Source: a candidate division WOR-3 bacterium (lineage in GTDB: Bacteria > Hydrothermota > Tepidihabitantia > Tepidihabitantales > Tepidihabitantaceae). From it: 64,000 bases of DNA. Position numbers and translations under genes: made by a program. The notes beneath the pieces were generated by a model. That model was not told the DNA's origin. It was given only the letters and a program-made list of their open reading frames with translations, and made no database searches. Where the stretch lies: NCBI GenBank assembly GCA_965648905.1, contig CBFGIT010000015.1, positions 1 through 64,000 of the forward strand, in the 5' to 3' direction. Shown here piece after piece: positions 20,876-54,129 of this stretch; within the stretch, counting starts at the first letter, position 1; every line of letters begins with the position of its first letter.

Positions 20876-23800
20876 ATGAGACAGTTCGTCCTGCTGGTGA
20901 TTGCCTGTGTGGTGCCGACCCTGGCCGGCACAGTGACAAGGTCAGTGGCTTTCAGTGCTTCTGACCTGACCCTGTCCCGCGCTGGCGAGTATGACGTTGT
21001 TGACCTTAAGGGCTTTCCGGCCCTGATTGAGCCGGGTGCGCCGCGCGTGCCGCGTGTGGTCGAGCTGGTCTCGATTCCAGCCGGAGCCGAGCCGACCGGA
21101 GTCGAACTGGTGACCGCAGAATGGCAGACCGTTGGCCAATACCGGCTTGCACCGGCCCAGCCGGACCAGCCTCTGCCCATGCCCGGCCGCGTTTTCGAGC
21201 CTCGGCTGTTCCCGCCTGATCCGAGTATCTACTCGTCGGCCGAGACGTACCCGAAAGAGCCGGTCCGGCAGCTTGAGTTTGGGACCCTTGGTGGGTATCG
21301 CATCGCCTTTGTCGAACTGCGACCGGTGCGCTGGGTGCCAGCCACAGGCGAACTACAGCTAGCGGCAAGACTCGTCTACCGTCTGAAGTACGAGCAGCAG
21401 GGCCGGGACAACCTGGTGCCGAGCGTGCGGCAGAAGGCGTTGTACGGCAAGCTGGTGCGCGAGATGGTGGTCAATCCGCGTGACGTGGCAGCAAACGCGC
21501 CGGCAGTAGGACGAACCGTCGTGACAATGCTGCCGCCGGGTGAGTATGACTACGTTGTCATCAGCGAGCCACCGCTCGACACGGTGTTTGCACGTCTGGC
21601 CGCATGGAAGACGCTCAAAGGTGTGCCCGCGACCGTCGTGACGAGGTCGTGGATTAGCGCAAACTATTCAGGCTATGACCTGCCGGACAAGTTCCGGAAC
21701 TTCATTATTGACGCGTATCAGACCTGGGGTACGCAGTACGTGCTCCTGGGCGGTGCGGCAGACCACAAGACCACAGGTCAGAACATCCTCCCGGGCCGGG
21801 ACGCCTGGTACATAACTCAGGGCGTGGGCTACTATCCGGACGAGGATACGATACCGTGCGACCTCTACTTCGGCGGCCTGGATGGAACCTGGGACTACAA
21901 CAACAATCATGTCTATGGCGAACGGGCGGACCGGGCCGACATGTTGAGCGAGGTATTTGTCGGTCGGGCATCGGTGAATAACGTGGCCCAGGCCCAGAAC
22001 TTCGTGGCCAAGACCCTGAGCTATGAGCAGAACCCACCGGCCGGATATCTCTGTAAGATGCTGCTGCCGACCGCAATTCTCTGGTCAAGCTACAACGAAC
22101 GGCCGATGCAGGAGTCGATTGCCCGAATGACCCCGACCAACTGGCAGGACTCGCGTCTCTACGAGCGCACCAGTACCCTGTCACGTCAGGCAATGCGGGA
22201 CTCGATGAACTCAGGATTTGGTCTGGGCCACTGGGTCGGACACGGTGACGAGAACGGCATCTACATGGGTTCTTCGCCCTACCTCAATTCCTCGGATGCC
22301 GATGCGCTGACCAACGGCGCGAAGCAGGGTATTCATGCCTCGATCGCCTGTTTCACCGGCGCGTGGGACGAAGTGCCGGGCGGGGACTGCTTTGCCGAGC
22401 ACCTGATGAACCGCGCCGGCGGTGGCTCGGTCGGCATGGCGATGAACTCGCGCTACGGCTACGGTGCGTACGTCAGCGGCTATGTGCCCGGGCCGTCGGA
22501 ACGGCTCGACACGGTCTTCTTTGCCCGAATCCTCGACCACGACGAGTATCATGCCGGTCAGGCGCTGGCATTCTCGCGCGGATTCTGGTCGCCTTATGCC
22601 GACTCGGGCGGCCGCTACGACATGCAGCGGTTCTGCATCTACGAGTTGAATCTCTTCGGCGACCCGGAGCTCTCAGTCTGGACCCGGGAACCGGTTGCCT
22701 TGAGTGCGACCCATGCGGGCGTGATTGCCCTGGGCAACAACGTGCCCTATCAGGTGACGGTCACCGACCCGAGTACCGCACCGGTTGAGTCGGCTCTGGT
22801 TCTGCTCTGGAAAGGAAACGAAGTCTATACCCGGGCACGCACCAACTCCTCAGGCCAGGTGACACTGCTGGTTTCGACCCAGACCCCGGGCCCGATGCTT
22901 CTTTCGGTCAGTGCCCGGAACCACTCTGTCCTTGTGGACACGGTGCGGGTCATTGCTTCGCAGCGCTATGTCACTTACCTCAAGTCCTGGGTCTATGACC
23001 CGGGCCCGGGTGGAAACAACGACTCGATTCTGAACCCGGGTGAGAGCGTCCGGCTGCCGACCTGGGTCAAGAACTGGGGGCAGCAGGCCGCCAACTCGGT
23101 CCAGGCCGTGCTGCGGACACACGACCCGCACGCCCGCATCACCGACTCGGCAAAGACGTTCGGCAATATCCCGGCCGGCGACTCGGCATACACCGGAACA
23201 AACGGGTTTGGGCTGGAGGTTGACTCAGGACTTGCGAACGGCTGTTCAGTCGCCTGCTCACTTGTCTGCCAGGACGCTCTTGACTCAATCTGGGTCTCGA
23301 CTGTCGTCTACAAGGTCGGTACGCCAGTCTTGAGCAATGGGCCGGTGACATTCCGCGACTCGGCACGGGGCAACGGCAACGGCCGGCTCGACCCGGACGA
23401 GGCTTCAGACCTGGTGATTGAAATCCGAAACCTGGGCCTTGGCCACGCGACCAACTGCCGGGGCTGGCTCAGCTCCGGCGACACACTGCTCTGGGTAATC
23501 GACCCGGACGCCAGCTTCGGCACAATCCGGGCCGGAGATACGGTCACCAACATGAACGACATGTTTGCGGTTCGGGCCGCGGCCGGGGTTCCGCTTGAGA
23601 CCCGGGTAAGCTGCACCCTGCGTCTGGTTGCAGACGGCGGCTATTCGGTCACCCTGCCTTTTACCATCCTTGTGGGTGAAATCCGTCAGCCTGACCCGAT
23701 TCCTGACGGGCCAAGACTGCCGGCCCGCTACTACGCCTACGACGACATTGACCAGGCCTACCCGCATCGTCCTGACTATAACTGGTTTGAAATCAAGACC

Positions 23801-52745: not shown

Positions 52746-52880
52746 TTGACAGGACAACAGGGCCGGACCGCAGCAAGACCGTGTACCTGTTCAAGCACGC
52801 TGCGGCCGGCGAGCAATCGACTCTTGAACCCTCGACTTCACGATCTCAGCCTTGAACCTGCGCGTCCGCGGCGCGCGGCG

Positions 52881-53246
52881 CTACTTCACGTTTATCAGCC
52901 CGAAGCGCAGGAACTTCATCACGTCCTCGTCGAGGCCGCGCACCTTCCACTTGGCGATGAGCGCATCGGTCTCGTTCTTCAACACCTTGCCGGTGTAGAT
53001 GTTGGACTTCTTCCACAACTCGCGGCAGTAGTTCAGGTAGCTGACATACAGGGCCGAGGGGATACCTGAGTTGTCGATTGCCTCCTTGGCCTGTAGTTCA
53101 AAGTTCGCCAGCTCGGTCTGACGCGCCTGATGCCGGGCCAGAGCATACTCGCGCACGTCATCGCTGGTCTGCTTTGTCCGCTCCGGCTTGGTCTTGGTTG
53201 CGTACTTGAACTGCCGGTCGATGTTGTCTCTGATTCTTCCGGGCAT
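52881..53246 (-). CDS. 121-aa basic alpha-helical protein, candidate SIRV2-fold (Adnaviria) major-capsid-protein homolog
   Basis: GAAAGGA RBS, own promoter, GC3-rich codons; R-x4-R-x2-K-Y-x2-K, GI-x7-Y-x2-Y and TG-x2-L-x-N-x4-L motifs. The CDS is well supported; the fold assignment is inference. Confidence 0.7.
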   Translation of the reverse strand: MPGRIRDNIDRQFKYATKTKPERTKQTSDDVREYALARHQARQTELANFELQAKEAIDNSGIPSALYVSYLNYCRELWKKSNIYTGKVLKNETDALIAKWKVRGLDEDVMKFLRFGLINVK

Positions 53247-53362
53247 TGTTCTGTCCTTTCTGCTGCCTCTGCGGCCTGGCGGCTGCAGGTCCGGCTGAAC
53301 GCGGACACGCCCGACGTTCGCAGCGCGCGAGCCACGCACGCACAGCCGAAGCAGCCACGAAG

Positions 53363-53391
53363 AGTATAGCTGCGCAAGTCGCCCGGCGCAA
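53363..53391 (-). promoter_or_regulatory. sigma70-type promoter of the capsid-fold gene
   Basis: TTGCGC-N17-TATACT on the minus strand. Confidence 0.6.
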
Positions 53392-53444
53392 GACCAAGCG
53401 TCCCCCTAAGCCACTAATCCTGGACGCGCGGCGCAACTCCTGCG

Positions 53445-53696
53445 GCTTAGCGCTGATATACCACGCGGGCATACGCAGAGTAAACGGGTACTATCACCAG
53501 CGGGGCGTACCAGACATAGACCGATAGGGTATTGCCACGGTAGTAGCCAGGGGGCTAGCCCCGGGCCACGGGGAGGTATACCCCAGGGTATGCCCTGTCG
53601 GCTTACCGGGATTAGAACCTGCAATAAGACCGGCGGTAGACCTCGAGGTAGCATGACCGATAATAGCCGTCCGTCTAATGGTACTAACCTCTCCAG
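53445..53696. repeat. 12-bp-periodic array of about 21 units (TAnTA / TAnRC / GYnTA)
   Basis: 20 of 27 TA dinucleotides fall in two phases 3 bp apart (53457+12n: 12 sites; 53448+12n: 8 sites). Confidence 0.85.
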
Positions 53697-53940: not shown

Positions 53941-54129
53941 GTACCCTTGGAGCTCTTGGTGAGCTTGGTGGTTCAATCTCGGACTCGGGGTTGTGCCTGA
54001 GCCCTGGTTCCGACACTGGAGCAACCGCAGAGGCCAACTGTCGAAGTTCGAAGGTCGAAGCTCGAAGTTCGAACGTACCCTTGGAGCTCTTGGTGAACTT
54101 GGTGGTTCAATTTCGGATTCGGAGCTGTG
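53941..54129. repeat. two 55-bp direct repeats with an intervening heptamer run
   Basis: GTACCCTTGGAGCTCTTGGTGARCTTGGTGGTTCAATYTCGGAYTCGG at 53941-53995 and 54075-54129 (5 mismatches); five TCGAA-core heptamers at 54041-54075. Confidence 0.85.

Follow-up and report, generated by a model that had tools for sequence, protein, structure and literature searches.

A homologue of Adnaviria capsid proteins and its 12-bp-phased DNA array in a candidate division WOR-3 bacterium

Why would a bacterial chromosome carry a gene related to the coat-protein genes of archaeal filamentous viruses, and why would the DNA in front of it be phased at 12 bp, the length covered by one dimer of those viral proteins? 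These questions are raised by a locus on contig CBFGIT010000015.1 (assembly GCA_965648905.1) of a candidate division WOR-3 bacterium, within a stretch of 64,000 nucleotides (the window). The locus comprises a gene on the minus strand (52881..53246) for a basic helical protein of 121 amino acids (aa), which is a homologue of the SIRV2-fold major capsid proteins of Adnaviria, and a noncoding, two-fold-symmetric array (53439..53690, 252 bp) in which 21 units of 12 bp, each approximating GGTAnTACC plus a 3-bp spacer, follow one another in exact register. A sequence-only reading of the window had picked out both elements, as a stand-alone basic helical gene and, about 200 bp upstream of it, a noncoding tract of about 250 bp with exact 12-bp phasing, and their main properties were borne out. 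The protein has a pI of 9.57, a net charge of +7 and a five-helix AlphaFold2 model, the gene-proximal end of the array lies 193 bp upstream of the ATG, and neither viral nor integrase nor packaging genes occur within about 6 kb. The same reading held that the coat proteins of rudiviruses and lipothrixviruses bind as dimers over 12 bp and keep DNA in A form. This agrees with the accessible part of PMC5517147, which gives for SIRV2 and AFV1 12 bp per coat-protein dimer, A-form DNA with 11.2 and 10.8 bp per turn, and 14.7 and 9.3 dimers per helical turn, respectively.

Homology of the 121-aa protein to Adnaviria coat proteins

An exhaustive homologue search gave 149 representative clusters at an E value of ≤0.001, and a profile built from 89 members was compared with all PDB sequences. 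The known adnaviral comparators were SIRV2 and SSRV1 (Rudiviridae), AFV1, SIFV and SFV1 (Lipothrixviridae), and the Pfam families PF12193 (Sulf_coat_C) and PF25647 (SFV1_VP4). The best 8 of the 15 rows listed were all adnaviral. The matches, nearly full length, were to SSRV1 (6wq0; E = 2.2e−9), SIRV2 (3j9x; E = 2.4e−8), SFV1 (6d5f; E = 1.8e−5), AFV1 ORF132 (5w7g; E = 2.5e−4), AFV1 ORF140 (E = 3e−3) and the C terminus of a SIRV coat protein (E = 4.6e−3). In the same comparison, the family motif R-x-x-K-[YW] aligned with the N terminus of SIRV2 and SSRV1. The AlphaFold2 model of the 121-aa protein (mean predicted local distance difference test score, 82.2), whose helices include residues 8 to 19 and 28 to 60, presents the C-terminal helical bundle of the SIRV2 fold. 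Foldseek returned no match at E ≤ 0.001; its five best PDB rows were all AFV1 ORF140, SIRV2 or SSRV1, at E values of 0.1 to 1.3, and a library of viral structures pointed to the same adnaviral families. Residues 1 to 45, the candidate counterpart of the basic N-terminal arm that turns into a DNA-wrapping helix in adnaviral coat proteins, carry a net charge of +4, and the median pI of the family is 9.5.

The search of viral genomes was consistent with this picture. When the family alignment was used in a tblastn search of IMG/VR, two contigs (L098 and L099) were found to encode a 122-aa protein with 26% identity over residues 3 to 119 (E = 2e−11 within the candidates), while the alignment of orthologues only gave no relatives in that database. 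The 122-aa gene matches Sulf_coat_C and is followed by a group 1 glycosyltransferase gene, with an archaeal Hjc resolvase gene nearby, which is the layout described for rudivirus-like viruses in the accessible part of PMC13700489. The two contigs (32.7 and 23.9 kb; about 52% GC) are adnavirus-like and also carry genes for an FkbM methyltransferase and a NikA-like ribbon-helix-helix protein; among the viral proteins found in the analysis, their coat protein came closest to the bacterial family. SFV1_VP4 was matched by 5 of 22 orthologues. The ESM Atlas gave no usable match, and PHROGs, NCBIfam and PADLOC, queried with seven members, gave no family at meaningful E values. Structure and profile searches both point to Adnaviria capsid proteins, as the sequence-only reading had supposed, and on the strength of these sequence comparisons and of the model we regard the 121-aa protein as a true homologue of them.

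In its present setting, the protein is a coat-family homologue but not a virion gene. The gene was not found in a viral genome together with virion and replication genes. Virion genes, integrases and terminases were absent from 63 neighboring open reading frames (ORFs) in the home genome and from 86 ORFs at 29 related loci. Within about 6 kb, the neighbors are polysaccharide-synthesis genes and genes for DUF4870 membrane proteins, a secreted beta-helix protein and PorV. Elsewhere they are equally ordinary and varied (TsaE, thiolase, RuvX/YceG, GrpE, restriction-modification genes and extracytoplasmic function [ECF] sigma factors), and they differ among the seven orthologue loci compared.

The family is large and, in the genomes searched, confined to a single bacterial order. 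Close homologues carry the NCBI name “candidate division WOR-3 bacterium,” and matches occurred in 58 of 61 related genomes, with 1 to 25 per genome. The three genomes without a match were one of the same order that is 68% complete and two from other orders, giving 58 of the 59 genomes searched in one WOR-3 order. When 201 genomes were sampled evenly across the phylum, 35 contained the family, namely the home genome and all 34 others of its order, spread over five families, while none of the 166 genomes from other orders did. A scan of genome contigs gave one orthologue and a weak match in a Porcipelethomonas genome (33% over residues 18 to 80). Within the 3.01 Mb of the home genome, 13 ORFs matched the broad profile at E < 0.001, and paralogues are only about 30% identical.

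Some members depart from this simple gene plan. Adjacent tandem pairs of family genes occur in four other genomes (G045:C100:5756/6145, G039:C24:2472/2868, G015:C5:25458/25802 and G013:C10:9958/10381) and in the home genome (C1:191956/192363), which recalls the two-protein (heterodimeric) coat of lipothrixviruses. Members of 250 to 350 aa, such as P0054, have an extra C-terminal extension of about 130 aa that looks rich in beta structure; the extension of P0054 was not found in the 61 related WOR-3 genomes, nor was P0054 found in IMG/VR. One subgroup (L021, L028 and L030) has a conserved cluster of an ECF sigma factor gene, a gene for a protein of about 270 aa and the coat-like gene, then Peptidase_M15_3 in L021 and L028, and has no 12-bp array. 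A candidate of 544 aa in nine stretches (P0034) was rejected as a family member, being a translated satellite repeat.

Family members are associated with upstream 12-bp arrays

How exceptional is the phasing at the locus? The power of the tract at period 12 was 13.5, versus ≤3.7 at every other period (16 periods tested). In a scan of the whole home genome in 240-bp windows, the array had the highest A/T-indicator power (12.7) of 149,859 windows (99.99th percentile, 9.7) and the highest four-base Fourier statistic, S12 (9.94), of 124,887 windows (99.9th percentile, 3.75), making it by both statistics the strongest 12-bp periodicity in 3.01 Mb. The unit profile reads G-G-[T/G]-[A/T]-n-T-A-C-C, followed by three poorly defined bases. 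Compared with its reverse complement, the profile gave r = 0.77 at a single shift and ≤0.44 at all the rest, so the two-fold symmetry read from the letters was upheld. Tandem Repeats Finder reported no repeat within 53439 to 53690 because the units are too divergent. Head-to-tail copies that are at least about 70% alike, as in a minisatellite, were not found, and only the phase and a degenerate motif are retained. The array is a phased degenerate motif rather than a recent tandem duplication.

Two blocks stand out within it. At its center lies a perfect 12-bp palindrome, GGGGCTAGCCCC (53551..53562), which is the best conserved block among orthologues in the alignment of five loci and whose motif, CTAGCCCC..GGGG, recurs at 12 bp in distant paralogue loci (L015, L040 and L008). 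The octamer GGTATACC is present verbatim at 53575..53582; according to the accessible part of PMC1950552, d(GGTATACC) crystallizes as A-DNA, and the array unit, GG..CC with a central TA, resembles the kind of sequence that does so, which we take as a lead only. A reading of the array as a repeat-peptide gene was rejected, with stops in all six frames across the array in 10 of 12 family loci.

The association extends to other members of the family, as the sequence-only reading would have it. S12 was scored at many periods over the 700 bp upstream of family genes, with thresholds of 3.75 and 5, in two sets: one took from each genome its best match, provided that 400 bp or more lay upstream (set 1; 27 loci), and the other took 58 further matches in list order, skipping only plus-strand ones too near the start of a contig (set 2). 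At period 12, S12 reached 3.75 in 10 and 5 in 7 of the 27 loci of set 1, while 15 other periods gave 0 to 4 loci at the lower and none at the higher threshold. Set 2 gave 17 and 14 of 58 loci at period 12 and 0 to 3 and 0 to 1 at other periods, except for period 12.5 (10 and 7 loci), which we read as leakage from period 12. Over 800 bp upstream, 29 of 85 loci reached 3.75 and 22 reached 5. The locus itself (L007) is among those counted, as are L032 and L089, where the arrays may be tetrapeptide repeats that code for protein. Another five loci were too short of upstream DNA to be scored, and since the related genomes are kin, locus counts overstate independence. Family members are associated with 12-bp arrays upstream, and no other period is enriched. 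Neither of the two computational outcomes that the sequence-only reading had named as refuting it, a predicted structure unrelated to the SIRV2 fold and homologues without a link to 12-bp tracts, was observed, and that reading is partly supported.

The arrays share a position and a rhythm more than a sequence. In all set 1 loci with S12 ≥ 5 the array lay upstream of the gene; arrays have about 20 to 28 units (the lower bound being set by the 240-bp window), and the median distance from their end to the gene is about 230 bp. The unit varies with the paralogue group; there are, for example, CTAGCCCC..GGGG types, a GCAAATCGCC type and, in low-GC genera, a type rich in A/T. In most arrays, the A/T fraction runs by phase from 0 to 0.1 up to 0.8 to 0.95, and no single class among W/S, R/Y and K/M periodicity explains all of them. 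When proteins were clustered at 50% identity by single linkage, four of eight clusters contained arrays. Many family genes are found close to the end of a contig, a few hundred bases away at most, on the side where an array would be expected (for example, G033:C716:56-421, G042:C86:55-399, G014:C5:110-451 and G025:C210:312-674), and repeated arrays may be what breaks the assemblies there.

The sequence-only reading had also seen similar phased tracts elsewhere in the window and had taken them as a sign of genome-wide action. This part was not confirmed: the next best tract in the 64 kb, at 23029, has an S12 of 4.52, looks ordinary and lacks the motif, and genome-wide action read from such tracts is not supported. 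Four further arrays were found on other contigs. The five strongest 12-bp arrays of the home genome, leaving out clustered regularly interspaced short palindromic repeats (CRISPR), are that of the locus (contig C15) and those on C11, C21, C10 and C12, and three of the five lie directly upstream of family ORFs. A CRISPR array at C40:13441-14080 (36-bp repeats and 36-bp spacers; a period of 72, or 6 × 12) also scored in the scan and is unrelated.

Gene, promoter and array were duplicated as one unit, and gene and array were inherited together. The 813 bp from 52873 to 53685, which hold all three, have a copy at C11:22609-23354 (blastn, 81% identity over 661 bp and 93% over 85 bp), in which the gene has a 67-bp deletion. 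By eye, the distal half of the array is much less alike between the two copies than the gene-proximal part, yet the register is kept. Substitutions between the C15 and C11 arrays reached 0.35 to 0.55 in spacer phases 9 to 11 and 0.33 at the central n, versus 0.14 to 0.20 in the half-sites (chi-square test across phases; P = 0.035), a pattern that indicates selection on the half-sites. The differences showed no codon-position bias (24/19/20, with 5/2/9 in the adjacent gene as a control), and a coding array was rejected on this count as well. On C21, an array of a different type lies directly upstream of a divergent member (C21:28896-29237; profile E = 2e−10), and copies of its array and promoter region, 87 to 90% identical, occur at C10:509-947 and C12:19338-19793. 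On C10, the copy comes right after the 3′ end of an ORF for an IS256-like transposase, which lies at the start of that contig. Four paralogues that otherwise differ are 88 to 90% identical over their final 124 bp (C21:29115-29238, C10:73280-73403, C52:2713-2836 and C1:182462-182586), suggesting gene conversion or mosaic paralogues.

The remaining features of the locus concern expression of the gene and the DNA beyond the array. The ATG start, which gives 121 aa, lies within a longer GTG frame reaching 53339 in the list of ORFs, and its methionine is common to all 22 aligned orthologues. An AAAGGA resembling a ribosome-binding site (53254..53259, minus strand) was read from the sequence 8 to 13 nucleotides (nt) 5′ of the ATG, and orthologues carry GAAAGGAG at this position in the five-locus alignment. 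A promoter of its own, as the sequence-only reading had proposed for the gene, is supported in part. A putative −10 hexamer, TATACT (53363..53368, minus strand), is TATACT, TATAAT or TATTAT across the five aligned orthologue loci, and 17 nt from it a putative −35 hexamer, TTGCGC (53386..53391, minus strand), lies within an invariant CTTGC; from this conservation we place a probable promoter, TTGCGC-N17-TATACT. It escaped a simple consensus scan, since TTGCGC and TTGACA agree at only three of six positions. The gene-proximal edge of the array is 47 bp upstream of the −35 hexamer. A gene-free stretch of 1.3 kb separates the array from the next gene upstream and holds two 55-bp direct repeats (53941 to 53995 and 54075 to 54129; 91% identical) with a 7-bp tandem, TCGAAGT ×4.7, between them (54041 to 54073); a partial copy is found at C9:72185-72219 in the home genome.

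Proposed cooperative assembly on the array and competing explanations

What might such a protein do on such an array? On balance, we lean slightly toward the view that the protein assembles cooperatively and in phase on the array and that autoregulation is the first effect. The gene product would be a cellular relative, domesticated or ancestral, of the protein that coats archaeal filamentous viruses. Like its viral relatives, it would bind double-stranded DNA as a symmetric dimer over 12 bp, and dimers would assemble side by side, cooperatively, on the 21 phased units, the 12-bp rhythm of GG(T/G)(A/T) and TACC half-sites setting every dimer in one register and on one face of the DNA. Every 12-bp segment is symmetry-equivalent in such a helix, and a 12-bp rhythm would therefore be expected of DNA tuned to sit on it. 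This would yield a short solenoid of protein and DNA, virus-like and about 250 bp long; its 21 units would make 1.4 turns in SIRV2 geometry or 2.3 turns in AFV1 geometry, which would allow contacts between turns and would fit a nucleation site. Since the array lies just 47 bp upstream of the gene's own putative −35 hexamer, feedback control of the protein's own synthesis would be the first consequence, and the complex could nucleate spreading onto neighboring DNA. We infer dimerization, a 12-bp footprint of the 121-aa protein, binding to the array, autoregulation and a transition to A form. A bolder extension, which we advance only tentatively and consider rather doubtful, is that the paralogues are addressable DNA-coating devices, each building a short virus-like rod, possibly in A form, on its own chromosomal assembly origin.

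Several observations weigh against cooperative assembly of a coat-protein relative on a dedicated array. With a single sequence, Pfam gave SFV1_VP4 at an E value of 0.12, below threshold, and the Foldseek E values are weak on their own. An array was detected for only about a third of the members examined (29 of 85 at S12 ≥ 3.75), and two of the eight protein clusters lack arrays altogether (0 of 7 members in one, 0 of 4 in the other), the smaller being the group embedded in ECF-sigma operons. Upstream of the coat gene on the two IMG/VR viral contigs there is no array either (S12 ≤ 1.8), and the orphan arrays on C10 and C12 have no adjacent family gene. The large group with units close to GCAAATCGCC is not two-fold symmetric (r = 0.35 to 0.48), so that a simple picture of symmetric homodimers cannot apply to every member. 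Several frames are open in some GC-rich paralogue arrays, which cannot settle the coding question, and the arrays of L032 and L089 could be tetrapeptide-repeat coding regions. Lastly, the difference in substitution across phases is significant only at P = 0.035.

The way in which the copies are distributed could also mean that gene and array form a selfish or mobile cassette, or part of one, in which the array is a recombination, replication or packaging site and the protein serves the spread or maintenance of the element. A cassette of this kind would suit a family with up to 25 matches per genome, many of them at contig ends, a duplicated unit with different flanks, neighbors that differ among seven orthologue loci, orphan copies of the array, one of them right after an IS256-like transposase fragment, and mosaic paralogues with common 3′ ends. 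We nevertheless consider it unlikely, given that the copies have no conserved transposase, integrase, replication or packaging gene beside them, that neither terminal inverted repeats nor target duplications were seen, although no systematic search for them was made, and that presence in 58 of 59 genomes of the order and paralogues of about 30% identity speak for long vertical retention. This explanation partly overlaps with cooperative assembly, because the protein of a cassette could still bind the array. Nothing was found in the analysis that points to packaging of the kind performed by gene transfer agents, a role that the sequence-only reading had listed.

The remaining alternatives detach the array from the protein. 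It might be a cis-regulatory region for another factor, for example, a regulator of the GGGGCTAGCCCC palindrome, with a period unrelated to the fold encoded next to it, and both its place just upstream of the promoter and the far better conservation of the central palindrome than of the flanking units among orthologues would fit. We judge this quite improbable, since period 12 alone recurs upstream of paralogues whose array sequences are unrelated, which a single unrelated factor cannot explain; moreover, the array travels with the gene in duplication, and in the home genome such arrays are confined to family genes and to their orphan copies. Another possibility is that the array is transcribed and works at the RNA level, be it in a leader or in a noncoding RNA of its own with 12-nt repeated protein-binding motifs; its palindromic units could form many small hairpins, and a gene-free stretch of 1.3 kb lies upstream. 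This is very unlikely in view of the conserved promoter downstream of the array and of the symmetric conservation of both half-sites, which fits duplex recognition; Rfam gave no match in the array, its folding energy was no better than that of shuffled sequence (z = −0.11 and −1.26), and the candidate of a known or structured RNA was rejected for lack of support. We find it just as hard to credit that the array is a decaying, functionless 12-bp minisatellite in a lineage prone to short tandem repeats, even with the 7-bp tandem 350 bp away: units too divergent for Tandem Repeats Finder keep an exact register over 252 bp, the two copies agree in phase although they are visibly much less alike in their distal halves than near the gene, substitutions avoid the half-sites, and the enrichment is specific to period 12 and to the coat-like gene family.

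Cooperative assembly on a phased array has partial precedents. The closest known way of working is that of plasmid centromere modules. According to the accessible part of PMC5016525, ParR/parC (type II), TubR/tubC (type III) and omega/parS of pSM19035 (type Ib) have short tandem iterons upstream of or around the promoter of the binding protein's gene, one dimer sits on each iteron, and a DNA-wrapping helical complex represses the promoter. As in those modules, an array of short repeats lies here upstream of the gene and promoter of the presumed binding protein, and paralogues have the same layout. However, ParR, TubR and omega have ribbon-helix-helix or winged-helix folds, whereas the coat-like protein is of SIRV2 type, without a Pfam match to ribbon-helix-helix or winged helix-turn-helix families. 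Centromere modules also have a partner motor NTPase (ParM, TubZ or ParA), which is absent among the neighbors of the coat-like gene, and their arrays are plasmid-borne, with 4 to 10 well-conserved iterons instead of 20 to 28 degenerate units. A period equal to the footprint of a coat subunit is known from the origin of assembly of tobacco mosaic virus, where a 3-nt sequence period matches one coat subunit and nucleates helical assembly; the likeness ends there, since that origin is a single hairpin of viral RNA and its coat protein is unrelated. Nucleosome-positioning DNA offers the other parallel, in that a degenerate alternation of A/T-rich and G/C-rich steps, in time with the helical repeat that B-DNA has on histones (about 10 bp), sets the rotational position of the wrapped DNA; here the alternation is at 12 bp, and histones are unrelated. 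With respect to the Adnaviria themselves, coat genes sit in a linear viral genome, whereas here they sit in a bacterial chromosome among housekeeping genes. Glycosyltransferase, Hjc and other viral partners are present on the two viral contigs and absent beside the bacterial genes, and the bacterial family is multi-copy and preceded by phased arrays, unlike the coat genes of the two viral contigs examined.

Meaning for the family and for the Adnaviria

The SIRV2-fold coat protein defines a whole virus realm, and in July 2026 coat proteins of this fold were still called exclusive to that archaea-specific realm in the accessible part of PMC13700489. Our literature search, which left subscription journals mostly outside, found no description of bacterial or cellular homologues of the adnaviral coat protein or of 12-bp arrays. 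A large, vertically kept chromosomal family of true homologues in bacteria alters the picture of a fold found in archaeal viruses only, and such a coat-like family bears directly on the origin of viral capsid proteins. On the bolder reading of its members as DNA-coating devices, the family would be one of two things: a cellular relative, long sought, of a capsid protein regarded as virus-only, or a cross-domain domestication from archaeal viruses.

The arrays add something that work on the viruses does not offer, namely natural DNA apparently tuned to the geometry of a protein-DNA helix. One small protein and 250 bp of DNA make nucleation, positioning and a possible drive toward A form directly testable. 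Should the paralogues prove to be DNA-coating devices, the Adnaviria capsid fold would for the first time be known to be used by a cell, and by a bacterium, and would for the first time have a sequence-specified assembly origin. And if these modules coat or mark chromosomal DNA, they would constitute a new kind of bacterial chromatin or regulatory device.

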